Below are positions 1 to 64,000 of a stretch of DNA of 64,000 bases, in pieces. Position 1 is the first letter of the stretch. Each line of letters starts with the position of its first letter. Location of the stretch: positions 20,498 to 84,497 of the IMG/VR virus record IMGVR_UViG_3300042922_000295, one strand, 5' to 3'. This DNA comes from a virus. The position numbers and the translations under genes are program-made. The notes beneath the pieces are model-generated. The model saw nothing but the letters and a program-made list of their open reading frames with translations, made no database searches and was not told the DNA's origin.

Positions 1-2
1 CG

Positions 3-2423
3 CTCCTGCTGAACGGACTGGAGGACGCCCGGGTCAACGCTCGCATGTTCGCGGCTCGCCCCGGCACCCGCGCCATGTTCGAGGCGAACGTGCGCGAGGT
101 GATGGCGAACGGCTTCGAGACGCATGAGGGTACGGTGCGGTGGAACGAGCGCCCGCTCAACGCACAGATCACCATTGGCCTGTACGCGGTCGCCAGCGGG
201 TACGACTACACCGGCTGGTTCCACGAGAAGGTCGAGCACGACCTCAAGGATGCCAAGCTCGTCGGCATCTGCGAGCAGGTGGCCGGGTCCGAGGGTGCCG
301 GTCAGGTGTACAACCTCGCCTTCAAGGCGCTGGCGCGACTGCGCGAACTCGGATACTGCCTGTCCGAGCGTGACCCCGACGTGGAGGAAGAAGAAGATGA
401 GCAGCCCGACGACGAGTCAGTACCTGAGCCGGATAGCGGAGAGGGTGAGCAGCCGGACGGGGATGCCTCCGAACCCGAGCACGCTGACAGCGATCAGCAG
501 GGCGAGGGTGAGGATGAACAACCGGAAGCTGAAGAAGCTGACGGGACGTCCGAACCTGACGGCAGCGCCGACGACAGCGACGCACACGCCGACCCAGATC
601 AGCAGGGTTCTGACGAGCCAGACTCCGGCGAGGCGCCGTCCGACGAGCCTGCATCCGACGAAGCGGACGATGGTTCCGAGAGCGACGCTGGTGACCCCGG
701 TGACGGGGATTCGGGAGCCGGAGCTGACGACGATGGTGGTCCTGCAGACTCCGAGGATGCTGGTGACGATGCCGACTCTGAGGGCGATGACGGAGGAGCA
801 CCTGAAGGGGAAGGTGCTGACGGGCGACCTGACGAAGCTGGCGGCAGTGACGGAGTGGACGATCAGGACTCCGAAGCAGGCGATGACTCGTCAGGCCAGG
901 ATTCGGGCGAAGCGGATGCTTCGAACGAGCAGCAGGATGGGGTAGACTCCGATGGCGAAGAGAGTGCTAACGGTGGGGCGCCTGACTCCGAAGGAGAAGA
1001 GGGTGCTGATCAGCCCGAGGCAGGGGGAGAGCTGGGAACTGGTGATCGCTCCGCCGACGCGCCAGTGGCTGACAACGATGAGCCTCTGGACGGGGACGGA
1101 GCCGACGACGCTGGCGAGGGTCAGCCCGAAGGAGACGTGACCGATGGAGCAGCCCTGGGTGAAGCTGGAAGTCCAGGAGGGGCCGACGAAGGTGTATCGG
1201 GTGACGTGCCTCCTGGGGACAGTGCAGACGTCGGTGAGGTTCGAGACGACGAGACGCCTGCCGCCGAGGCTGGCGAAGGCGACGATGGACGTCACGAGGT
1301 CAGCGACGACGGCGATCAACCGTCTGACAGCGATGGGGCGCTCGACGTCGGACCGGCGAAGAAGGCCGGATGGGCAGAGCCCCTCCCCGAGTACGGCGAA
1401 GCCCGAGATGTCGAGGGAGACCTCGACGCCGCCATGCACCACGACGGTGACCAGGTAGCACCTTCGGGAGACATCGTCTACGACACGCAGGACGACGCCG
1501 AGGAGGTTGCCCGGGAGATCATCCAGGGCATCTACTTCGAGACGGGGTCACTCAACGTCGCGGGCGTGGTCGAGCATCGTCGTGACGACGAGCGCACTGG
1601 CGCACACTGGAGCGCGGCCAAGAGGTTCAACGCCTTCGACAGGCGCCAGCGTGGCATCGACGGTGACTTCACCGTGCCGGAGTCCGTGCTCGGTGCCGCC
1701 CTGCAGCGCATGCGTGTCGTGTTCTCCGAGAACCGTCGAGCCGTCCACACGCGCAACCTCAAGGCCGGGAAGGTCAACGCACGGTCGCTCGGCAAGCGTG
1801 CGTGGGGTGACGACGAGCGGCTGTTCCGCCGCAAGCAGCAGCCGGGCAAGCGTGACTACTCGGTCGTCATCGGTATGGACATCAGCGGCTCGACGGCCGG
1901 GCAGGAGATCGCCATTGAGAAGCGGGCCGTCATGGCGCAGGCTGAGCTGCTCAACCGTATGGGTATCAGGTTCGCCATCGTGGCGCACTCGACCCAGCAT
2001 GGTGGCGTACCAGGCATGACCGGCGGCATCACGCTGAGCATGTACCACGTCAAGGAGTTCGACCAGCCGTGGACGGACAAGACGCGGGACAACCTGTCGT
2101 CGTTGGCATCTGGCAACGGCAACCTCGACGGTCACAGCATGGAGTTCTACCGCAAGATGCTGGACCGAGAGAACACCACCGACCGCATCATCATGTACTA
2201 CACTGACGGCGCAATGCCTGCCTCCAACTACGACGAGGAACTTGAAATCCTGCGTCGGGAGCTCCAGGTGTGCGCCCAGAAACGGTACACCGTGATGGGA
2301 GTCGGCATCCGTACAGACTCGCCCACGGAGCACGGACTCGACACGGTCGTGGTGGAAGAAGACTCCGATATCGTCAACGTCGTGAAGTTCCTGGAGCGGC
2401 GGCTAGAGCGTACGGTACGGTAG
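3..2423 (+). CDS. CobT-like VWA-domain protein with long acidic linker (5'-truncated)
   Basis: Frame is open from the window start (LLLNGLEDARVNAR, the NxxEDxR motif of CobT-like N-domains). About 360 aa of Asp/Glu/Gly-rich linker, then a C-terminal MIDAS motif DISGS and YTDG. Confidence 0.88.
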   Translation, partial: LLLNGLEDARVNARMFAARPGTRAMFEANVREVMANGFETHEGTVRWNERPLNAQITIGLYAVASGYDYTGWFHEKVEHDLKDAKLVGICEQVAGSEGAGQVYNLAFKALARLRELGYCLSERDPDVEEEEDEQPDDESVPEPDSGEGEQPDGDASEPEHADSDQQGEGEDEQPEAEEADGTSEPDGSADDSDAHADPDQQGSDEPDSGEAPSDEPASDEADDGSESDAGDPGDGDSGAGADDDGGPADSEDAGDDADSEGDDGGAPEGEGADGRPDEAGGSDGVDDQDSEAGDDSSGQDSGEADASNEQQDGVDSDGEESANGGAPDSEGEEGADQPEAGGELGTGDRSADAPVADNDEPLDGDGADDAGEGQPEGDVTDGAALGEAGSPGGADEGVSGDVPPGDSADVGEVRDDETPAAEAGEGDDGRHEVSDDGDQPSDSDGALDVGPAKKAGWAEPLPEYGEARDVEGDLDAAMHHDGDQVAPSGDIVYDTQDDAEEVAREIIQGIYFETGSLNVAGVVEHRRDDERTGAHWSAAKRFNAFDRRQRGIDGDFTVPESVLGAALQRMRVVFSENRRAVHTRNLKAGKVNARSLGKRAWGDDERLFRRKQQPGKRDYSVVIGMDISGSTAGQEIAIEKRAVMAQAELLNRMGIRFAIVAHSTQHGGVPGMTGGITLSMYHVKEFDQPWTDKTRDNLSSLASGNGNLDGHSMEFYRKMLDRENTTDRIIMYYTDGAMPASNYDEELEILRRELQVCAQKRYTVMGVGIRTDSPTEHGLDTVVVEEDSDIVNVVKFLERRLERTVR
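397..945 (+). CDS. Candidate overprinted (nested, +1 frame) basic protein, 182 aa
   Basis: ATG 9 nt after GGAGG (383-387), starting where the acidic linker begins. Codons are GC3-rich (AAG, CTG, AAC, ATC). Confidence 0.4.
   Translation: MSSPTTSQYLSRIAERVSSRTGMPPNPSTLTAISRARVRMNNRKLKKLTGRPNLTAAPTTATHTPTQISRVLTSQTPARRRPTSLHPTKRTMVPRATLVTPVTGIREPELTTMVVLQTPRMLVTMPTLRAMTEEHLKGKVLTGDLTKLAAVTEWTIRTPKQAMTRQARIRAKRMLRTSSRMG
952..1140 (+). CDS. Candidate overprinted (nested, +1 frame) protein, 62 aa
   Basis: Starts 6 nt after the stop of the previous nested ORF, same frame. Confidence 0.4.
   Translation: MAKRVLTVGRLTPKEKRVLISPRQGESWELVIAPPTRQWLTTMSLWTGTEPTTLARVSPKET
1144..1458 (+). CDS. Candidate overprinted (nested, +1 frame) protein, 104 aa
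   Basis: AAGGAG (1129-1134) 9 nt before ATG, 3 nt after the previous stop. Globular-looking N-terminus MEQPWVKLEVQEGPTKVYRVTCLLG. Ends near the end of the acidic linker. Confidence 0.5.
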   Translation: MEQPWVKLEVQEGPTKVYRVTCLLGTVQTSVRFETTRRLPPRLAKATMDVTRSATTAINRLTAMGRSTSDRRRRPDGQSPSPSTAKPEMSRETSTPPCTTTVTR

Positions 2424-2538
2424 TCGTAGGTCCCCACGGGAACGGGGGCCACAGCCAGGCGACGGCGCGGCCCGTTGGCACGAGCGGCGCGGCCCGTCGC
2501 CTGGCTCGCCCCCCGACACACACACGAAAGAAGGAACA

Positions 2539-2985
2539 ATGAGCAACGCGGACTACAGCGAGTTCGAGGGCAAGAAGGTCATCCTCACCGCCACCGTCGA
2601 CGGCGAGCAGGTCGAGCTGGAGGGCACCGCCGAGACGGTGAACGAGCTCGCCATCCTGTTCAAGCCGAAGGGCAAGGCGAAGCTCGACATCATCGAGGCC
2701 GAGAACATCGTCGGCGTCCGGTACGCGCCGGAGAAGCCGAAGACGCTCAAGGCGAAGTCGCTCCTCCCGATCCAGTACGGGCAGGCGCGCCAGCACCTCA
2801 TCGACCGGCACGGCTACACGCTCTCGGACATCAACGCGATGACCGAGGAGCAGGCGTACAACTTCCACAAGGAGCTCGACCACAAGGCGAGCGACCTCGG
2901 CCACGTCCACGCGGCCAAGGAGCAGACCGAGGCCGAGGCCGCCGTCGAGGCCGTCGAGTCCGGCGAGACCGACTCCGAGGCCTGA
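2539..2985 (+). CDS. Hypothetical protein, 148 aa
   Basis: Strong RBS (GAAAGAAGGAA) and very biased GC3 codon usage suggesting high expression. Confidence 0.9.
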   Translation: MSNADYSEFEGKKVILTATVDGEQVELEGTAETVNELAILFKPKGKAKLDIIEAENIVGVRYAPEKPKTLKAKSLLPIQYGQARQHLIDRHGYTLSDINAMTEEQAYNFHKELDHKASDLGHVHAAKEQTEAEAAVEAVESGETDSEA

Positions 2986-3011
2986 GAGAGCCTTCGGGGT
3001 TCCCTCCCGAC

Positions 3012-3208
3012 GTCCGGCAGGCGCGGCGGTCGAGGGTTTCCAACAGGGGTGAGGCTAGCGGCGAGGTTGTCGGACCGGTCGCTGCAGGCCCTTCCCAAGT
3101 CTGCCTCATAAACGGTCCCGGGCGGCGGCATTCTACGCCGTGCGCCCGGGACTGATTAAAGGATGAGTGTGGTCGGCAAGAACTCATCACAAAAACTCCT
3201 GCCGGGCA
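3012..3208 (+). ncRNA. Candidate structured non-coding RNA, family unknown
   Basis: Lies in a 306-nt gap between genes. Closing stem GTCCGGCAGG/CCTGCCGGGC encloses several hairpins and is followed by a strong terminator-like stem. Confidence 0.5.
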
Positions 3209-3210
3209 CT

Positions 3211-3252
3211 CGCCCCGCACCTGGTTCCCCTGGCCAGGTGCGGGGCGTTCGT
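3211..3252 (+). terminator. Terminator-like hairpin
   Basis: CGCCCCGCACCTGG / CCAGGTGCGGGGCG 14-bp stem, then TTCGT. Confidence 0.6.
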
Positions 3253-3291
3253 GCTGACCCAACCAGACCCCAATGACGGGAGACAAGACGC

Positions 3292-3510
3292 GTGGACATC
3301 GCACTCATCATCCTCATCGCCTACCTCATCATCGGCGCCGTCGTCGGCACGGTGCTCGTGTTCGTGGGCGAGCGAGGCAACAACGACGACCTGTACGCGT
3401 TCCTCGGAGGCCTCATCTTCTGGCCGCTCGTGGTGACCGTGCTGCTCGGCTTCTTCTTCTACAACATCATCCGCAAGACGGCGGACAAGATGAACGAGAC
3501 CGGGCTGTGA
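3292..3510 (+). CDS. Small membrane protein (2 TM)
   Basis: Two hydrophobic segments; GGGAGA RBS. Confidence 0.85.
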   Translation: MDIALIILIAYLIIGAVVGTVLVFVGERGNNDDLYAFLGGLIFWPLVVTVLLGFFFYNIIRKTADKMNETGL

Positions 3511-3788
3511 CCACCGAGCCGACCGTGGCGCCACGGGTGCCACGCGCCCCGCACACGGGCGCCGACGCCCCGGCCGCTACCCCGGTAGCCTCCGACGAGG
3601 AGCGGCCGTCCACGGGGCGCACGCACGACCGGGCATCTTCCCGCCAGTGGCGAGACGGCATGCTCCTCATCAACCTTCTACCGTCTCAGCGTCGAGACGG
3701 GACGATGGCCGTGGTGGACTCCCGTGGTCGCATCCGCGACTACGACAGTGGCGAGCTGCTCGCCGTGACTAGAAGGAAGTCGAAGTGA
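3507..3788 (+). CDS. Hypothetical protein
   Basis: GTGA overlaps with both neighbours. Confidence 0.7.
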   Translation: MTTEPTVAPRVPRAPHTGADAPAATPVASDEERPSTGRTHDRASSRQWRDGMLLINLLPSQRRDGTMAVVDSRGRIRDYDSGELLAVTRRKSK

Positions 3789-4063
3789 AGAAGGCACTCG
3801 CACTTGCTGCGGCGGTCGCTGTTGCACTCGTCGCCACCGCATGTACCCCCGACATGGAGTCGGGGGTGGTGATCGCCAAGGACCACCAGTCGGGACACTG
3901 GATGCACTGCGGCAAGGGCTGCATGATCTGGAACGACGAGGAGTGGAACCTCCGCATCCAGGGGGTCAACGAGGAGGGCGAAGAGGCTACCGGCTGGGTC
4001 GACGTCCCCATGGAGGTTTGGGACGCCACCGAGGTCGGCGACGAGTACCCTCCCCGTGGTTGA
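3785..4063 (+). CDS. Putative lipoprotein
   Basis: Signal peptide MKKALALAAAVAVALVATA-C with lipobox Cys. Confidence 0.8.
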   Translation: MKKALALAAAVAVALVATACTPDMESGVVIAKDHQSGHWMHCGKGCMIWNDEEWNLRIQGVNEEGEEATGWVDVPMEVWDATEVGDEYPPRG

Positions 4064-6790: not shown

Positions 6791-7015
6791 GTGAAGCAGC
6801 GAGTCTACCGATGCACCCGGTGCCGACGTGGCGAGGAGTCGGGTATCACCCGCGAGAAGCTCATGGTCAAGAAGGCCGTGTTCTACACCATGGGTGTCGC
6901 GCCCAAGATCATCCGATCCCGACGCCTCGACTGGCTCTGCCCCGCGTGCGTGGCCGAGGACCCCGACTGGCAGAAGGAGTCCCAGCAGGGCGCTTCGGAG
7001 GCCCTCGTTGGCTAG
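6791..7015 (+). CDS. Small zinc-finger protein
   Basis: GGAGAG RBS, GTG start; CTRC...CPAC. Confidence 0.8.
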   Translation: MKQRVYRCTRCRRGEESGITREKLMVKKAVFYTMGVAPKIIRSRRLDWLCPACVAEDPDWQKESQQGASEALVG

Positions 7016-7616
7016 GCAGGGTAGGCCGCGCAACGCCAAGGCTGCTGAAGGTCTGATCAGCAAGCACCGTGTGGCGTGGCTGGAGACCTTCATCGGCCAC
7101 GTCTACATCATGATGTATCCCGAGGGTCACGCCGACGAGACCGACGCACCCTCAGTCAAATCAGAACCCGGCCCGACACTCCGGCTGATGTTCGTCAAGA
7201 ACGGGCGTCCGATCTACTGGACGCTCACGGCGCTGACATCAGATGAGCTCGACAAGCTCAAGACCCTTCTCGACATGGCCTTCGACATCGCTCGCCCGAT
7301 AGTCGAGGAAAGAGACAAGGCGGCACAACATGCGTACGACACCCAGGGTGACGACTCTATCGCCCGACTCTATCGCGCAGTTTCGCGCCTCATTGTGCGC
7401 GAGGGGGCGATCACCGAAAACAGCACAAGCGTACGGCAGCGACCTGAAGACGATGCTGCTGGACCTGGAGGACCCGGAGATTCCGATGAAGGACTTCGAG
7501 TCATCGGCCCAGAACTGGCTGACGTTCAACCGGAAGCTGGTGGGGTACAAGACGACGGGACGCAGGCTGACGAGTCTCCGGGCGTTCGCCCGGTGGGCTG
7601 GATGGCCGACCTCTGA
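7008..7616 (+). CDS. Hypothetical protein overlapping the recombinase 5' end
   Basis: GGAGG RBS and TTG start; globular N-terminal part; last 287 nt overlap the recombinase. Confidence 0.75.
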   Translation: MARQGRPRNAKAAEGLISKHRVAWLETFIGHVYIMMYPEGHADETDAPSVKSEPGPTLRLMFVKNGRPIYWTLTALTSDELDKLKTLLDMAFDIARPIVEERDKAAQHAYDTQGDDSIARLYRAVSRLIVREGAITENSTSVRQRPEDDAAGPGGPGDSDEGLRVIGPELADVQPEAGGVQDDGTQADESPGVRPVGWMADL

Positions 7617-8166
7617 CCTCGACGAGTACAAGGCGCCTTCTGCCCCGCCGACCCAGCCTCACCCGATCCCCGAGGGCGTGGACGGACTTCGTCGCATGGT
7701 TGCGGCGGCGCGAAAGCCGAGCCATCGTGCACTAGTGGCGTTGTGCGGTTTCATCGGCTGTCGAGTCGGCGAGGCTCTCTCTGTCCGACCTAGCGACATC
7801 GACCTCGGGTCGATGGTCCTGAAGGTCGACGGCAAGGGCGACAAGATTCGCTTCGTCCCCATCTCCACCGAGGCGTGGGGGTACATGGCGGATGCAGTAA
7901 CAGCAGCTTTCCTGAACGGTGACGAGCGAATCATCAACGTTCAGGAGCGGGTGGCACGTCAGAACATCACCACCCTCGCGAAGCGCGCCGGACTCTCCCG
8001 GCACGTTTCCTCGCATGACCTGCGGTCGACGTTCTCGACCGCTGTGTACGACAAGACGGGCGACATCCGTCTTGTGCAGGAACTCCTCGGGCACTCGTCC
8101 GTGGAGACGACCCAGATCTACATTGGCGTCAAGCACCAGAAGATGCGCGACGCTGTGGAACTGTGA
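7330..8166 (+). CDS. Tyrosine recombinase (XerC/XerD-like, no arm-binding domain)
   Basis: GCRVGE (R), GKGDK (K), HDLR (HxxR), LLGHSS (H), TTQIY (Y). Start may be GTG 7348. Confidence 0.95.
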   Translation: MRTTPRVTTLSPDSIAQFRASLCARGRSPKTAQAYGSDLKTMLLDLEDPEIPMKDFESSAQNWLTFNRKLVGYKTTGRRLTSLRAFARWAGWPTSDLDEYKAPSAPPTQPHPIPEGVDGLRRMVAAARKPSHRALVALCGFIGCRVGEALSVRPSDIDLGSMVLKVDGKGDKIRFVPISTEAWGYMADAVTAAFLNGDERIINVQERVARQNITTLAKRAGLSRHVSSHDLRSTFSTAVYDKTGDIRLVQELLGHSSVETTQIYIGVKHQKMRDAVEL

Positions 8167-12684: not shown

Positions 12685-13845
12685 ATGACAGTCGACACGG
12701 TCGGCAACGCAGGGGCCGTCGGCGCCTGGTCGCAGGGTGACCAGGGGGTCGCGGGCCTGGAGGACATCGGTGCGGAGGACTTCAGCGTCCCCCGGCTGAA
12801 GATCATGCAGCGGGAGTCGCGGTTCAAGCTCCCGGACGGTTCCGAGCTGCAGCAGCTCGACTGCATCCTGCTCGGCATGACCAAGCAGCGCATCATGTGG
12901 TACAGGGACCTGGAGGACAACGACAAGCCGCAGTGCAAGTCCCCGGACTTCCAGCACGGCTTCCCGAACATCGGGCGCGGTCGTCCCCAGACGCACTTCC
13001 CGTTCTCGATCACGCCCTTCACGCCGGAGTCGCTCCGGCCGGTCGAGGAGCCGCCGTCGTACGAGTGGCAGGACGGGTACTCGTCCAACGGTCACCCGGT
13101 CATCGCCTGCTCCACGTGCCCGCTCAAGGAGTGGGGCAAGGACTCGTCGGGCAAGTCGACGCCCCCGCCGTGCTCGGAGCAGCACACGTACGCGCTGCTC
13201 TACACCACGGACCAGGGTCAGAGCTGGTTCCCGGCGATCCTCACGCTCCAGAAGACCGGCATCAAGCCCTCGAAGAACTACATCCAGGGCTTCGCGCAGC
13301 GTCGGCTCCCGCTGTTCTCGGCGCAGACCCGCATCACGCTGCGCGGCGAGAAGCGCGGCATGGTCGAGTACTCCGTGCCGACGTTCGAGAAGATCGGTGA
13401 CAACGATCCTTCGATGGCGGCGGAGTTCGCGGACAAGGGTCGGGCCATCCGCGACTTCCTCCGGGCGGCTCCCCGTCCGAACGAGGTCGAGGCAGCTCCG
13501 GAGTCGAACCCGGGCGCGGCAGACCCGTGGGCGACGGACGGTCAGCGTCCGGCACCCGCACCGGCTCCCGCCCCGGCACCGGCAGCCCCGGCACCCGCCG
13601 CACCGGCACCGGCAGCGGTCGCTGCTGCCCCTGTGGCGCCCGCTCCGGCCGCACCGGCACCCGTGGCACCGGCAGCCCCGGCTGCGCCCGCACCGGCCGC
13701 TCCGGCGCCGCCCGTGGCACCCGCCGCGACGGCGCCCACGGCCCCGGCAGCGCCGCCCACGCCGACGCCCGCGCCGCCCTCCATGCCCGCCATGGCGACG
13801 CCTCCTCCGGCGTCGGAGGACGACGACGACGAGATTCCCTTCTGA
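12685..13845 (+). CDS. Putative ssDNA-binding / recombination protein
   Basis: Cys-containing phage domain, long Pro/Ala linker and SSB-type acidic tail EDDDDEIPF. Confidence 0.7.
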   Translation: MTVDTVGNAGAVGAWSQGDQGVAGLEDIGAEDFSVPRLKIMQRESRFKLPDGSELQQLDCILLGMTKQRIMWYRDLEDNDKPQCKSPDFQHGFPNIGRGRPQTHFPFSITPFTPESLRPVEEPPSYEWQDGYSSNGHPVIACSTCPLKEWGKDSSGKSTPPPCSEQHTYALLYTTDQGQSWFPAILTLQKTGIKPSKNYIQGFAQRRLPLFSAQTRITLRGEKRGMVEYSVPTFEKIGDNDPSMAAEFADKGRAIRDFLRAAPRPNEVEAAPESNPGAADPWATDGQRPAPAPAPAPAPAAPAPAAPAPAAVAAAPVAPAPAAPAPVAPAAPAAPAPAAPAPPVAPAATAPTAPAAPPTPTPAPPSMPAMATPPPASEDDDDEIPF

Positions 13846-59764: not shown

Positions 59765-61667
59765 CGCAAGCTCCTCCGCTTTTCAGCGCAAGCTGGCTGA
59801 GAAGCGCGCAAGGGAGGCTGCAGAGAAGGCTAAGAACTCACCACAGCCGTCCGGGTGGGAAGCCTATGCCGACTTGATCCCGACGGTCGACGATGTGCAT
59901 GAGCGCAGCGCCGACCAGAAGGCTCTGGACACCGCAGTCGAAGGCATCGACATCATCGCTGCCTATCGTCGCTGGTGCGGCAAGATGGAACCGGTCGTCG
60001 GCAAGAAGCGCGAGAGCATCATGATCTCGTGTCCGAAGCCGAACCACAAGGACTCGAACCCCTCGGCGTGGATCAACCTGGACAAGCAGACGTGGTTCTG
60101 CGGCTCGTGCCAGGAGGGTGGCGACTCGCACGACATCGCCGCCTACCACTACGGATACCCCGTACCGCAGTACAAGAACGACGCCACCTTCCACAAGCTG
60201 CGCGAGCAGATGGCGAAGGACTTCGGCTTCACCATCCAGAAGATGCCGGGTGGTGTGACTCACGTCATCGCCCCCGAGCCGGAGCCGGAGGAGGAGCCCA
60301 CACCGACGCCCACCGGGCCTGTCGTCGTCGGACCGGAGCCCACGGTTCCCGAGCTGGCACCAGTCATCGAGATGACCGACGATGGCGACCTTCCGTCGTA
60401 CGACTACCCGTCGCTCGACTGGCGTTCTATCGTCCCCGAGAACAGCTTCATCCGCATGTACATGCGGCAGTGCATCGTGGACGACATCGCGGAGGAGTAT
60501 CACTTCTGGAACGCACTTGTCGCCGTGGGGTTCGCCCTCGGCCGCGAGGCCAGGCTGTTCGACTCTAGGCCGGTGTACGGGAACTTGTTCGTCTGTACCC
60601 TGGGGCACTCCGGGTCTGGCAAGTCAAAGGCGGCGGGCTACCTCAACAACGTGCTGGACGAGGCACTCCCGCACGACTGGACGGACCCCTCGTCGCGTGG
60701 TGTGCGTCGCATCGCCACGCCGGGCTCGGCCGAGGTTCTGATCCACAGCTTCCAGAAGCAGGTGACAGACCCGAGCGACCCGAAGAAGGTCATGTACCAC
60801 GCCCCGGTCAAGGGTCTGATCGACTTCAACGAGTTCTCCCAGCTCATGGGGCGTGCGGGTCGGCAGGGCAACATGCTCAAGCCGACCCTCATGCAGTTCT
60901 ACGACATGGACAACCTGATCACGTCGAACTCGCTCACCACGGGGTCCAAGGAAGCTCACGACCCCTTCGCGTCCATCCTTACGACGACCCAGCCCGCCGC
61001 GATGCGCGAGCTGGTTGGAAAGGGCGACGACAATTCGGGATTCTTGAACCGTTGGGTGTTCGTCGCCGGGCCGGACAAAAAGAAGGTTTCCATCGGCGGC
61101 GCGAAGATCGACATCTCGCCCTCGGTGCCCTACCTGCAGGCCATCTTCGCATGGGCTGGCCAGTTCAGGGACAACGAGTACGTAGAGCTCGGCCCGGAGG
61201 CGTACGAGGAATGGGACAAGGCCTTCCACGAGGTTGTCTACCCGAAGAAGATCGGCTCGTCGTCGTCCATCCTCAACCGGCTCGACCTGCTCATGAAGAA
61301 GCTCATCCTGCTGCTCGCTGGTAACAAGATGGAGCGCGTGGTGTCCGGCCAGACGGTGCGAGAGGCCATGAGCCTCTTCGACTACATCCTCAAGTGCTAC
61401 GAGATGCCCGAATCGGAGCTCGGCAAGACGCTGAACTCCGAGGTCCAGGAGGCGGTGCTGTACCAGTGCCGCAAGCAGTGGGAGAAGAACCCCCAGGCGG
61501 GCGTGACGGTGTCCATCATCGCTCGCAACCTCGCCAGGCGGAACTATCCGAGGGAGATGATCGTGAAGACGCTTGACACCCTTGTCAAGCTGGACCTTAT
61601 CGAACCCGTGGTGTCCGAACCGGGCAAGCGCGGCCGACCGACAACGAGGTACCGCTATGTCGGCTGA
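59757..61667 (+). CDS. Zinc finger (CHC2-like) plus DUF3987-like P-loop helicase
   Basis: CP...H.D..PS...WFCGSC; GHSGSGKS; GFLNRW; C-terminal winged helix GRP...Y. Confidence 0.85.
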   Translation: MPDASSSAFQRKLAEKRAREAAEKAKNSPQPSGWEAYADLIPTVDDVHERSADQKALDTAVEGIDIIAAYRRWCGKMEPVVGKKRESIMISCPKPNHKDSNPSAWINLDKQTWFCGSCQEGGDSHDIAAYHYGYPVPQYKNDATFHKLREQMAKDFGFTIQKMPGGVTHVIAPEPEPEEEPTPTPTGPVVVGPEPTVPELAPVIEMTDDGDLPSYDYPSLDWRSIVPENSFIRMYMRQCIVDDIAEEYHFWNALVAVGFALGREARLFDSRPVYGNLFVCTLGHSGSGKSKAAGYLNNVLDEALPHDWTDPSSRGVRRIATPGSAEVLIHSFQKQVTDPSDPKKVMYHAPVKGLIDFNEFSQLMGRAGRQGNMLKPTLMQFYDMDNLITSNSLTTGSKEAHDPFASILTTTQPAAMRELVGKGDDNSGFLNRWVFVAGPDKKKVSIGGAKIDISPSVPYLQAIFAWAGQFRDNEYVELGPEAYEEWDKAFHEVVYPKKIGSSSSILNRLDLLMKKLILLLAGNKMERVVSGQTVREAMSLFDYILKCYEMPESELGKTLNSEVQEAVLYQCRKQWEKNPQAGVTVSIIARNLARRNYPREMIVKTLDTLVKLDLIEPVVSEPGKRGRPTTRYRYVG

Positions 61668-62025
61668 CCACGACGTGAACCTTCTCCGGAACGCCTCGAT
61701 CGAGTGGGTCGAGAACGGCCGTCTCGTTCTTCAGCTCTCCAACGGCGATAGGCTCATCCTCGCGCAGGACGTCTACGACGAGCTGTGCGACGGTGAATAC
61801 TCTAACCGGCAGCACTACAGCCGCGCCACCTACGCCAAGGGGTGCCGTGGCCCGATGTGCCGTCTCGCTGAGACGCACCGGGGCCGCAAGCGCAACGCCG
61901 ACCGCGCCCATGAAGGCGGTCGGGAGTATCGCGAGGGCTTCCGCACCAACGACAGGTCGGTGGAACTCGCCCCGATCATCACCTGGCACCTCGCGACCCG
62001 GGGCCGCAAGATACGCGAGTCCTAG
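61657..62025 (+). CDS. Hypothetical protein (H...TY..GCR...CR motif)
   Basis: GAGGT RBS; overlaps the helicase stop. Confidence 0.75.
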   Translation: MSADHDVNLLRNASIEWVENGRLVLQLSNGDRLILAQDVYDELCDGEYSNRQHYSRATYAKGCRGPMCRLAETHRGRKRNADRAHEGGREYREGFRTNDRSVELAPIITWHLATRGRKIRES

Positions 62026-62031
62026 AAGCAG

Positions 62032-62068
62032 AGAAACCCCCCGGCTGGAATCCAGCCGGGGGGTTTCT
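62032..62068. terminator. Bidirectional intrinsic terminator
   Basis: AGAAACCCCCCGGCTGGA / TCCAGCCGGGGGGTTTCT between convergent genes. Confidence 0.9.
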
Positions 62069-62075
62069 TGTGTCC

Positions 62076-62819
62076 TTATTGCAAGGCGCCTCGTTGGATC
62101 GGCGGTAGGTCGCCGGACAGGTTTCCAGTCGCATAGTCGTACGCGACGTCAGCGATGTGCCCGATGAGCGACCCGTCGAACTCGTCGCCGCAGATACACC
62201 CGGGCTCCGTCTGCGAGATGGGGCCGTGGTGCTCCTCGACTAGCGCCACGACCTGCTCGGGAGGGCGCCGTGCCCACATGTGACCCTCGAAGATGAGGGA
62301 CCCATCCTTGTCGTGGTTGAACTCCACCTCAACGCGGGGCACCTCGCCCACGGCATGCGTGAAGGTGACGAAATGCACACCGTCGAGCGAGGTGCCGTTG
62401 ACCACGACCTCTGTAGTGGAGGGCGAGATGTTCTGCACCTTCACCATGCCAGACTTCGGAATGCGGGACTTGACGTTGGTGCGCTCGGCCTGCGTGGTGT
62501 ACTTCTTGGCGCTGCACTTGGGGCAGTAGTAGCGCGTGACAACATTGCCCTCGATCTCGTCTGGAAGCCAGGCGTGTTCGCACGACCCAGAGGTGGGAGC
62601 TCCGCCCACAACCTCCAGAGGCCCGTTTCCCAGGGAGTCCTTGAAGACCTGTGGCGGCTCAGTGCCCACCTCCCACCACAGGTCGGAGTTGCAGATGAAG
62701 CAGTTGACGAGATACCGACCTTTGGTGTGACCCAGATCAGTTCGTACGTGACCCCACTGGTGCCTGTCGTCGCGACAGCAGGCGACAGTGCGGTCGAAGT
62801 CCCAGCTCAGCTGACCCAC
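62076..62819 (-). CDS. Cys/His-rich hypothetical protein
   Basis: GGAGG RBS, GTG 62819; several CxxC motifs. Confidence 0.75.
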   Translation of the reverse strand: MGQLSWDFDRTVACCRDDRHQWGHVRTDLGHTKGRYLVNCFICNSDLWWEVGTEPPQVFKDSLGNGPLEVVGGAPTSGSCEHAWLPDEIEGNVVTRYYCPKCSAKKYTTQAERTNVKSRIPKSGMVKVQNISPSTTEVVVNGTSLDGVHFVTFTHAVGEVPRVEVEFNHDKDGSLIFEGHMWARRPPEQVVALVEEHHGPISQTEPGCICGDEFDGSLIGHIADVAYDYATGNLSGDLPPIQRGALQ

Positions 62820-63499
62820 CTCCAGTTCTCCTTGCCAGCCTTGAAGCCGCCGCACACCTGGCATTGCGTGCCCGTGATGCTCCCCACCATGGCGCGTGCC
62901 GTTCGCGTGTGCGAGCAGGCGTCGACCTCTTCCTTGGTGTACTGACGCTTCTCGTTGCACCCGTGGCAGATCTTCCAGCCGCGCCGCATGTGGTGGTGCT
63001 CCCACTCGTGCTCGTGCGGCTGCTCCTCCAACACGGCCTCAAGCAGGACTGCCGCGCCGTCGAGCCACATGATGCGAGTGTGCCCGCCGTGCCCGTGGAC
63101 CTTCAGCGCGTCGTCGGCGGATGCGTACGTGATGGTGGAGGCCGTGTCCCCACGCCAGCGGAGCGTCACGGTGCCGTCAGTAAACTGCACCCCGTCCGCG
63201 ATGACGCCGGTGCCCGAGACGCCTGTAACGTCGTGAGAGCGGATGAGGACGAACTTGCGGAACCCCTTGGTCGGCGCACCCTCGCGCTCATCGTGCGGCT
63301 CCAGGCCGGGGCCGAACACCGCGACCTCCATCTGCACGAGGGTGATCGCGTCCATGAGTGCGCAGAGCGCCGGGTGGGTCTCCTGGAGAGACTTCCCGGC
63401 GCGCTGCTTGGGGTGGACCGACTCGTTGGCTTCCTGCATGGCCTTGGTGAACGCCGCTGAGAGCTGGTTCGCAGCAGCCTGGATGACACGGAGGTCCAT
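62807..63499 (-). CDS. Hypothetical protein
   Basis: Contains the F.L.R..DVTGVSGTG..A.GV.F.DG...HGH.G module common in actinophages. Confidence 0.8.
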   Translation of the reverse strand: MDLRVIQAAANQLSAAFTKAMQEANESVHPKQRAGKSLQETHPALCALMDAITLVQMEVAVFGPGLEPHDEREGAPTKGFRKFVLIRSHDVTGVSGTGVIADGVQFTDGTVTLRWRGDTASTITYASADDALKVHGHGGHTRIMWLDGAAVLLEAVLEEQPHEHEWEHHHMRRGWKICHGCNEKRQYTKEEVDACSHTRTARAMVGSITGTQCQVCGGFKAGKENWRWVS

Positions 63500-63750
63500 C
63501 AGTCGACCTCCGGCTTGGTGGGCTCTTCGGTGGCATCGAGCAAGGCCTCGCCGACCATCCGGAGAACCTTGTTCCCCAGGTCTCGGGCGAGCACCGGGTT
63601 CTCGGCCTGTATCGACTCGGCGTAGGCGATGATCGCGTTGACGGCGTGAGGGTCGTGCTTGGGGTCCAAGACGAACACCCAGCAGTTGTCGTGCTTGCCC
63701 TCCGGGTCGTTGATCTTCTTGACCTCGTAGCGTGCTTCCAGGCCCTTCAC
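63499..63750 (-). CDS. Hypothetical protein, 83 aa
   Basis: FVLDPKHDPHA..A..AYA motif; coupled start and stop. Confidence 0.8.
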   Translation of the reverse strand: MKGLEARYEVKKINDPEGKHDNCWVFVLDPKHDPHAVNAIIAYAESIQAENPVLARDLGNKVLRMVGEALLDATEEPTKPEVD

Positions 63751-63977
63751 GATACCTCCTTGTAGGGGACGAGCAGTGCGGCCAGGGCGCAGATTGCGCT
63801 GGCGATGAGGGGGAGCAGGGCGACGGGGGTCAGGTTGCCGCTGATGATGACGAACCAGACGAACCCCGCCAGGGCGCCGATGCTGGCGCTGAAAAGGAGC
63901 TTCGCACCGTAGCGCATCTCGTACCGACGCGGCGGGGCGGGCTTCTTGGCGATCACTGTTGCGTGTCTACCTTTCAT
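63747..63977 (-). CDS. Small membrane protein (2 TM)
   Basis: Two hydrophobic segments. Confidence 0.75.
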   Translation of the reverse strand: MKGRHATVIAKKPAPPRRYEMRYGAKLLFSASIGALAGFVWFVIISGNLTPVALLPLIASAICALAALLVPYKEVS

Positions 63978-64000
63978 CGTTACTCGTCGTGGAACGTGGG

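Follow-up and report, generated by a model that had tools for sequence, protein, structure and literature searches.

The HExxH/VWA gene and the frames within its spacer

The 64,000-nucleotide (nt) stretch of DNA analysed here, referred to as the window, comprises bases 20498–84497 of an 84.5-kb IMG/VR phage record (IMGVR_UViG_3300042922_000295). It opens within a gene for a CobT-like protein that combines an HExxH motif with a von Willebrand factor A (VWA) domain, and this paper concerns the long acidic spacer, or linker, of that protein, along which three open reading frames (ORF1 to ORF3) abut one another in the +1 frame. We consider it likely, from comparison of related sequences, that the linker of this phage HExxH/VWA gene is read in two frames, with at least ORF2 coding in +1.

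The frame of window position 3 is called the VWA frame throughout. The gene begins approximately 530–600 nt before the window, with a likely ATG start at about window position -528, and ends at 2423; its full open reading frame is L001:900-3923, and the protein (P0001) is 1007 amino acids (aa) long counted from the first GTG. P0001 consists of an N-terminal domain with HExxH and three Cys, a 361-codon acidic spacer and a C-terminal VWA domain. The closest relative for which there is DNA is a soil metagenome contig, L036, whose flanking domains are approximately 60% identical in amino acid sequence. The features of the locus are as follows, where SD stands for Shine–Dalgarno and pI for isoelectric point.

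1..2423, plus strand: 3' two thirds of the CobT-like HExxH/VWA gene, from the ORF list and Pfam CobT_C
375..1458, plus strand: acidic D/E/G/A/S/P linker in the VWA frame, 361 codons, 37% D+E
383..387, plus strand: SD-like GGAGG, 9 nt before the ORF1 ATG, also an automatic product of Glu codons
397..945, plus strand, +1 frame: ORF1, 182 aa from the ATG at 397 or 273 aa from the ATG at 124, candidate only
943..951, plus strand: +1 stop TAG (943-945) and 6-nt spacer before the ORF2 ATG, identical in L036
952..1140, plus strand, +1 frame: ORF2, 62 aa, pI 10.9, a probable and well-supported overprinted gene
1129..1134, plus strand: SD-like AAGGAG, 9 nt before the ORF3 ATG, GGGAGG at a similar distance in L036
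1138..1143, plus strand: +1 stop TGA (1138-1140) and 3-nt spacer before the ORF3 ATG, stop and restart kept in L036
1144..1458, plus strand, +1 frame: ORF3, 104 aa, candidate only

This layout agrees with the initial annotation, which had described three abutting ORFs with gaps of 6 nt (ORF1 to ORF2) and 3 nt (ORF2 to ORF3), two of them with SD-like sequences 9 nt upstream.

Openness of the +1 frame

The length of the ORFs is in itself no evidence of coding, because a +1 stop (xTA followed by A or G, or xTG followed by A) requires a T at position 2 of a VWA-frame codon, that is, V, L, I, M or F, and the acidic linker is largely without such codons: only 21 of the 361 (5.8%) have T at this position. 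The whole VWA gene contains only 11 +1 stops. Chance was estimated from synonymous-codon shuffles of the linker, as the initial annotation had suggested. On average the shuffles contain 3.1 +1 stops (P(<=2) = 0.29), and their longest open run has a median length of 227 codons. The openness of the +1 ORFs is no more than expected by chance. SD-like motifs likewise arise automatically from Glu and Gly codons, and the high +1 content of G and C at third codon positions (GC3) is automatic because D, E, G and A codons begin with G. The warning given with the original proposal, that runs of Asp and Glu create such signals by themselves, was therefore well founded for ORF length, +1 GC3, SD-like motifs and ATG codons.

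The position of the starts is a different matter: both internal +1 stops are followed by an ATG within three codons, which is beyond chance in the same shuffles (P = 0.007). L036 retains all three +1 stops (943, 1138 and 1456), as well as the ATG restarts. The stretch 943-951 derives from the VWA-frame codons GTA GAC TCC GAT G.

We therefore have to consider that the VWA frame alone is translated, and that the +1 ORFs, SD-like motifs, ATG codons and +1 GC3 are by-products of Asp, Glu and Gly codons. The automatic openness of the +1 frame and the ability of the shuffles to reproduce the ORF lengths speak for this explanation; it leaves unexplained the conserved stop-ATG junctions, as well as a 51% identical homologue of ORF2 (P0124) and an enrichment of +1 motifs over shuffles, both described below. 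We regard it as unlikely.

Codon usage in the spacer

GC3 in the VWA frame is approximately 0.58 in the linker and approximately 0.85 in the flanks; the values lie at 0.46–0.66 within the linker and at 0.84–0.92 in both flanking domains, which bears out the earlier remark that the linker is unusual in its A/T-ending codons. The drop is seen for individual amino acids (GAC for D, 0.68 vs 0.90; GAG for E, 0.56 vs 0.91; likewise for G, A and P) and exceeds chance. We rejected next-base context as its cause: the linker GC3 predicted from amino acid and next base is 0.81, the observed value is 0.60, and context explains no more than 0.04 of a drop of 0.25. A general effect of acidity was also rejected, since other acidic patches retain a GC3 of 0.8–1.0. 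More broadly, acidic or low-hydrophobicity patches elsewhere in the genome stay at 0.75–1.0, so that the check proposed with the initial annotation places linker GC3 below that of the genome's other stretches of this kind. Tandem expansion was discarded as a cause of the low GC3 as well; the spacer has no tandem or dispersed internal repeats.

If only the VWA frame were translated, the low GC3 would mean that codon selection is relaxed, or of another kind, where the spacer is disordered. Genome GC3 does fall somewhat with low hydrophobicity generally, from 0.91 to 0.74, but codon usage is normal in a 124-aa PA-rich linker (13450-13821) and in acidic tails elsewhere among the genes; moreover, relaxed selection would raise the synonymous rate, not lower it as is seen below.

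The +1 products are basic (pI 10.9–12) and rich in T, R, L, P, A, S, M and V, so that their earlier description as rich in L, K, V and M is correct only in part. The +1 shadow of the VWA domain proper, described earlier as an ordinary S/R/T-rich sequence, is indeed rich in S, R, T and A.

Constraint on ORF2

The ORF2 region aligns to L036 as an ungapped block of 101 codons. The +1 protein is 83% identical to L036:3600-3788 (E 2e-30), and the VWA frame there is 61% identical. The 35 nucleotide differences in the block are distributed as 20, 7 and 8 over VWA-frame codon positions 1, 2 and 3; in the first 250 nt of the spacer the corresponding numbers are 22, 23 and 46, mostly third positions. 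The distribution in the ORF2 block differs significantly both from that in the first linker part (Fisher P = 6e-4) and from that in the flanks (P = 4e-4). Third positions differ at 8/66 sites in ORF2 vs 277/599 in the flanks (P = 3e-8), and 38 of the 40 conserved residues in ORF2 have identical codons. Excess codon identity is 0.04 in 375-620, 0.50 in 621-944, 0.88 in 945-1140 and 0.67 in 1141-1458, compared with 0.15–0.18 in the two folded domains.

The Nei–Gojobori ratio of nonsynonymous to synonymous differences (pN/pS) in the block is 2.1 [1.1-6.3] for the VWA frame and 0.31 [0.13-0.56] for +1. An OLGenie-style estimate, in which changes that are nonsynonymous in both frames are set against those that are synonymous in +1 only (dNN/dNS), gives 0.35 [0.15-0.63] for ORF2, with flank controls at 0.74–1.09. 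ORF2 therefore combines a conserved intact ORF, purifying selection in +1 and suppressed synonymous change in the reference frame, by which overlapping genes are recognised, and is probably a genuine overprinted gene. Frozen synonymous sites in the VWA frame together with free first positions, found here and in the linker of a second pair (L050/L051, below), are the observations on which translation of the VWA frame alone fails.

Three further explanations of this pattern were considered. The constrained frame might be the in-register antisense, where a minus-strand ORF (891..1442) would encode a hydrophobic protein and would share its wobble position with the +1 sense frame. This 183-aa ORF is present in the window, and antisense pN/pS in the ORF2 block, 0.37 [0.18-0.65], is almost as low as that of +1. 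The conserved block of L036 nevertheless contains two antisense stops (TCA codons in the VWA frame), there are many in two further relatives, L007 and L034, and the stop-ATG junctions and Trp codons are meaningful on the sense strand only; this explanation is extremely improbable.

Alternatively, the ORF2 block might have been exchanged recently, with the excess of first-position changes arising from diversifying selection on spacer residues or from a nucleotide-level element such as an RNA structure. Phage genomes are mosaic, the synonymous divergence of L050/L051 differs fourfold between the N- and C-terminal flanks, and the ORF2 block is 81% identical in nucleotides vs 67–74% in the flanks. 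However, divergence at +1 wobble positions in the block (pS 0.39) approaches that at synonymous sites of the flanks (pS 0.49–0.56), so the block is not simply young and no recent exchange is needed. There is also no rationale for diversifying selection on a low-complexity A/S/G/P/T spacer, and RNA structure would not yield a period-3 pattern with conservative +1 replacements (V/I, T/A, L/V) down to 51% identity. We consider this combination very unlikely.

The linker was also considered as the variable region of a diversity-generating retroelement (DGR), in which hypermutation is driven by a reverse transcriptase. No repeat of the linker was found anywhere in the window that could serve as a template, and the first-position changes involve all four bases and are not adenine-specific, so a DGR was rejected, also as an explanation for the low GC3.

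Homologues of the putative ORF2 protein

An exhaustive HMMER search with ORF2 found two further members, P0122 (83% identical) and P0124 (51% identical by phmmer, E 1.6e-5; 48% in alignment A4), both on short metagenome contigs from ENA. They are proteins called by gene callers on those other contigs, with the start of P0124 lying further upstream. Fifteen positions are invariant in the four sequences: K3 R4 L6 V8 G9 R10 L11 T12 P13, W28, W39 and G48 T49 E50 P51. The family is thus characterised by the motifs KR(V/I)LxVGRLTP and GTEPxTLA and by two Trp, and the replacements are conservative. The conserved Trp codons in +1 account for the few conserved L and V residues of the acidic spacer. The ORF2 product contains neither Cys nor a signal sequence.

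In a phmmer search with ORF2, only L036 ranks above shuffled decoys. Scans of genome contigs and viral contigs with the ORF2 alignment found no relative, nor did a scan of viral contigs with P0124 alone; tblastn of P0124 against GenBank phages gave one weak match, to a single-stranded RNA phage polymerase (E 0.6).

Signs of a second frame in other lineages

A protein search found 119 homologues of the VWA protein, 760–1100 aa long, and DNA was compared for approximately 100 homologous loci. The statistics below refer to 27 non-redundant long linkers unless otherwise given. GC3 drops by 0.1–0.4 in almost every relative with a long spacer, and these spacers carry 0–3 +1 stops and 15–42 +2 stops. 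The 27 long spacers together have 32 +1 stops vs 41.9 expected from synonymous shuffles, which is 24% fewer; the deficit stems mainly from fewer junctions of xTA with a following G, and the flanks show none. An ATG directly follows the +1 stop in 8/31 cases, compared with 9% in shuffles.

The strict motif [KR][KR][VIL][VILM]x[VIL]G, shared by this phage and L036, occurs in 3/25 other lineages vs 0.05 expected, and a looser form, defined after seeing the data, occurs in 9 lineages vs 0.66 expected. At sites of the recurrent +1 motif KRVLxVG, T-ending codons are conserved while variation falls on first positions.

The only very close pair, L050/L051 (97.8% identical in nucleotides), has 20 differences in the spacer, distributed as 12, 4 and 4 over the three codon positions; 12 of the 20 are synonymous in +1 (binomial P = 7e-4), and dNN/dNS for the linker is 0.23 [0.07-0.60]. 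Synonymous differences at identical residues number 2 in 319 linker codons vs 41 in 601 flank codons, figures that have to be read with the mosaic history of this pair in mind. Besides the window and L036, only L050/L051 reaches significance. In L007/L034 and L031/L037, codon identity is raised (0.53 vs 0.26 and 0.29 vs 0.11, respectively) and there are local blocks in which +1 is the best-conserved frame.

Lineages differ in the number and position of their +1 stops, and the layout ranges from one ORF of approximately 300 aa in L007/L034 to three in the window. In L007:4294-5214 and L034:946-1848 a single open +1 frame of approximately 300 codons spans the spacer; where the conserved part begins, L034 has an ATG and L007 does not. 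The L034 frame has been called as a protein (P0121, 100% identical) on a 2.6-kb ENA contig, the sole match in a word-indexed search.

Among cultured phages, Rhodococcus phage Reynauld (OR159659, gp75) has a spacer GC3 of 0.48 vs 0.88 in the flanks. Inside its gp75 lies an unannotated 189-aa +1 ORF (L002:3360-3926, at approximately complement 61359-61925 in OR159659) that starts with a transmembrane-like hydrophobic helix.

The evidence at family level is mixed, although it suggests widespread and fast-evolving dual coding. That the long acidic linkers of the whole phage HExxH/VWA family (approximately 150–430 codons, in dozens of soil phage lineages and Reynauld) are generally dual-coding is a tentative proposal, to which we give somewhat less than even weight. 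On this proposal, the +1 proteins may be fast-evolving and up to approximately 300–450 aa long, encoded in a single ORF or in two or three ORFs with coupled translation, and the second frame may be the reason for the length and odd codon usage of the spacer. It is even conceivable that small genes were captured between an HExxH gene and a VWA gene, and that the acidic spacer is their read-through shadow.

Proposed explanation and evidence against it

We propose the following explanation for dual coding at ORF2. In the VWA frame the linker would be a disordered acidic spacer in which only composition matters, and in +1 purifying selection would maintain the sequence of a small basic protein encoded by ORF2. 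Third positions of the VWA frame would double as +1 second positions, so that A/T-ending codons would accumulate and then freeze; first positions of the VWA frame would be the +1 wobble, where the sequence is free to vary. The conserved Trp codons and the +1 stops would come from the few V and L codons of the spacer. Ribosomes would start ORF2 internally on the VWA mRNA, and this start might be coupled to termination of an upstream +1 reading (stop, 6 nt, ATG). As a guess that we hold with low confidence, the basic peptide might serve the MoxR-like AAA+/VWA machine next to it as a cofactor or a regulator.

A number of results weigh against this explanation or restrict it. There is no purifying selection in +1 in ORF1, with dNN/dNS of 1.62 for 397-620 and 1.01 for 621-945, or in ORF3 (0.92 [0.68-1.26]). 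Over its first 250 nt the linker evolves like an ordinary single-frame coding sequence even though GC3 is low there, and the dual coding that we detect therefore leaves part of the GC3 anomaly unexplained. The direct evidence for ORF2 consists of one DNA pair and two protein-only homologues, on contigs of 548 and 604 nt, and upstream of ORF2 in the window there is only a weak SD-like sequence, GGATGGGG at 935-942, where L036 has GGAGGGGG. The sequence occurs in two soil DNA metagenome runs only, with no RNA run listed; the contigs of the two runs contain no variants of it. Across the family, neither L007/L034 nor L031/L037 reaches significance when the whole linker is taken, and in most deep pairs +1 similarity does not exceed that of shuffles (median z 0.14). 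Structure prediction by AlphaFold2 gave low confidence for ORF2 (11-row alignment, predicted local distance difference test score (pLDDT) 54) and for the 301-aa +1 protein of L034 (3 rows, pLDDT 44). At the cut-offs used, Pfam gave no match for any +1 product; PHROGs gave one weak and probably compositional match, for the L034 +1 protein (tape-measure family, E 1.7e-4); the ESM Atlas gave no usable match for ORF2; and neither ORF2 nor the L034 +1 protein had a tblastn match among GenBank phages.

Translation of the VWA frame alone would account for several of these results, namely the single-frame evolution of the first part of ORF1, the lack of +1 selection in its second part and in ORF3, and the +1 products for which no fold or family was found. 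The comparative evidence leads us to prefer dual coding, at least for ORF2.

What ORF1 and ORF3 share with L036 is confined to their boundaries and to patches of nucleotide conservation. The last 20 or so codons and the stop of ORF1 are conserved there, and so are the start and stop of ORF3, for which +1 identity is 43–45% vs 36% in the VWA frame. In ORF1 the VWA frame is under weak purifying selection, and a word-indexed protein search with ORF3 found no homologue. ORF1 and ORF3 may be fast-evolving companions of ORF2 or a mere open shadow. With no +1 selection and only boundaries and patches in common, the three-gene operon put forward in the initial annotation is not established, and its layout is common only to L036: other lineages have 0–3 +1 stops, placed elsewhere. 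The proposal that the linker is dual-coding holds up for ORF2, where alignment with relatives, a check that had been suggested with it, reveals a conserved start and stop, frozen VWA-frame synonymous sites and +1 purifying selection; for ORF1 and ORF3 the same alignment shows kept boundaries and conserved nucleotide patches, with no +1 selection.

The host protein and neighbouring features

Pfam CobT_C (PF11775) matches residues 608-776 of the part of the protein encoded in the window (E 1.5e-4, 22 bits, with a cut-off of 21). The metal-ion-dependent adhesion site (MIDAS) motif of the VWA domain, DxSxS, is present as DISGS (D827, S829 and S831 of P0001) and is invariant in relatives. A Pfam scan of the N-terminal 333 aa gave no match, and hence no CobT_N (PF06213), the domain expected of a CobT that acts with CobN and CobS in cobalt insertion; no search aimed at CobN was made. 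In the N-terminal domain (residues 100-320 of P0001; L001:900-1900, reaching into window 1-374), the HExxH residues H137, E138 and H141 are invariant in 20 relatives, and so are Cys111, Cys122 and Cys125. The N-terminus looks like a zinc-metallopeptidase-like domain fused to the VWA domain, rather than CobT.

Cultured relatives are found in Gordonia, Rhodococcus and Tsukamurella phages, where the VWA domain is 40–49% identical and is annotated as 'CobT-like'. The name 'cobalamin' in GenBank relatives is annotation only, and these entries annotate only the 'CobT-like' gene here, with no second frame. GenBank phages and IMG/VR contain no near-identical relative, and Reynauld likewise has none that is close.

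The gene that hosts ORF2 sits in the early/replication region, with an AAA_5 (MoxR/CobS-like) ATPase gene upstream. In the gap between the two (window -1175 to -523; L102:1823-2475), two ORFs, one of 161 aa on the plus strand and one of 194 aa on the minus strand, overlap over almost their whole length, and neither has a Pfam match. At -618..-496, comparison with L036 shows a conserved frame that differs from the VWA frame.

Elsewhere in the window, the acidic tail of a 262-aa ORF (6828-7616) is overlapped for 287 nt in +1 by the start of a tyrosine-recombinase-like ORF (7330-8166), which matches the earlier description of an acidic shadow at 7330-7616 with a recombinase in the +1 frame. This is either a second real overlap or an over-long call of the upstream ORF. 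At the other end, window 61000-64000 (G000 81497-84497) repeats the start of the record (G000 836-3831) over at least 3 kb at only 96% identity. The repeat is either a diverged terminal repeat or the result of two strain variants joined in assembly. The true genome would be approximately 80.7 kb.

Comparison with known systems

Same-strand nested genes are textbook knowledge in tiny viruses and hardly documented in large tailed phages, and annotation pipelines exclude long nested genes on the same strand by design. In the microvirus phiX174, gene B is nested in A and E in D, and K is a further nested gene. The present case resembles phiX174 in having nested coding on the same strand, with candidate SD-like motifs here where phiX174 has internal ribosome-binding sites. 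It differs in that phiX174 has a tiny single-stranded DNA genome under strong size constraint, whereas the overlap described here lies in a large genome and is seemingly allowed by the laxity of the spacer.

Among tailed phages, a close parallel is given by the spanin genes of phage lambda, where Rz1 is embedded in the +1 frame of Rz and encodes an outer-membrane lipoprotein with a lipobox Cys. As with Rz1 and Rz, a small +1 gene would lie wholly within a larger gene on the same strand and would presumably be translated by internal initiation. Unlike Rz1, ORF2 has no Cys or signal peptide and so lacks what would mark it as a member of a spanin pair; and unlike Rz, the host of ORF2 is a VWA protein that partners an AAA+ ATPase, not a lysis gene, and the overlap falls in an acidic disordered spacer.

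The ALTO/middle T frame of polyomaviruses is overprinted in +1 on a disordered region of the large T antigen (PMC4446436). There as here, an intrinsically disordered part of the ancestral protein carries the second frame, and both frames evolve under codon constraint. ALTO, however, belongs to small eukaryotic DNA viruses and uses splicing or alternative initiation, whereas here the setting is a tailed phage of actinobacterial type with a genome of approximately 80 kb, possibly with several tandem +1 ORFs.

The host protein itself recalls the VWA subunits of the CobT/BchD type, which have acidic linkers and partner AAA+ (CobS/MoxR) ATPases (Pfam PF11775; bioRxiv 10.64898/2026.10.09.757910). 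Like them it has DxSxS (DISGS) in a VWA domain at the C-terminus, an acidic spacer and an AAA_5 ATPase encoded next to it. It differs from them in its N-terminal HExxH/Cys-rich domain, with no CobT_N match, and in its far longer spacer (361 aa) with a constrained second frame. We found no report in the literature of a second frame in the spacer of phage CobT-like or VWA genes. If dual coding does extend across the family, between one and three genes would be missing from the annotation of hundreds of phage genomes, and the AAA+/VWA remodelling module would carry its own hidden small partner proteins. Set beside these systems, the present case offers a mechanistic reason why a disordered spacer in which only composition matters permits a second frame, and it points to signs that can be screened for in the linkers of phage and bacterial proteins: a local collapse of GC3, frozen third positions, variable first positions and stop-ATG junctions.

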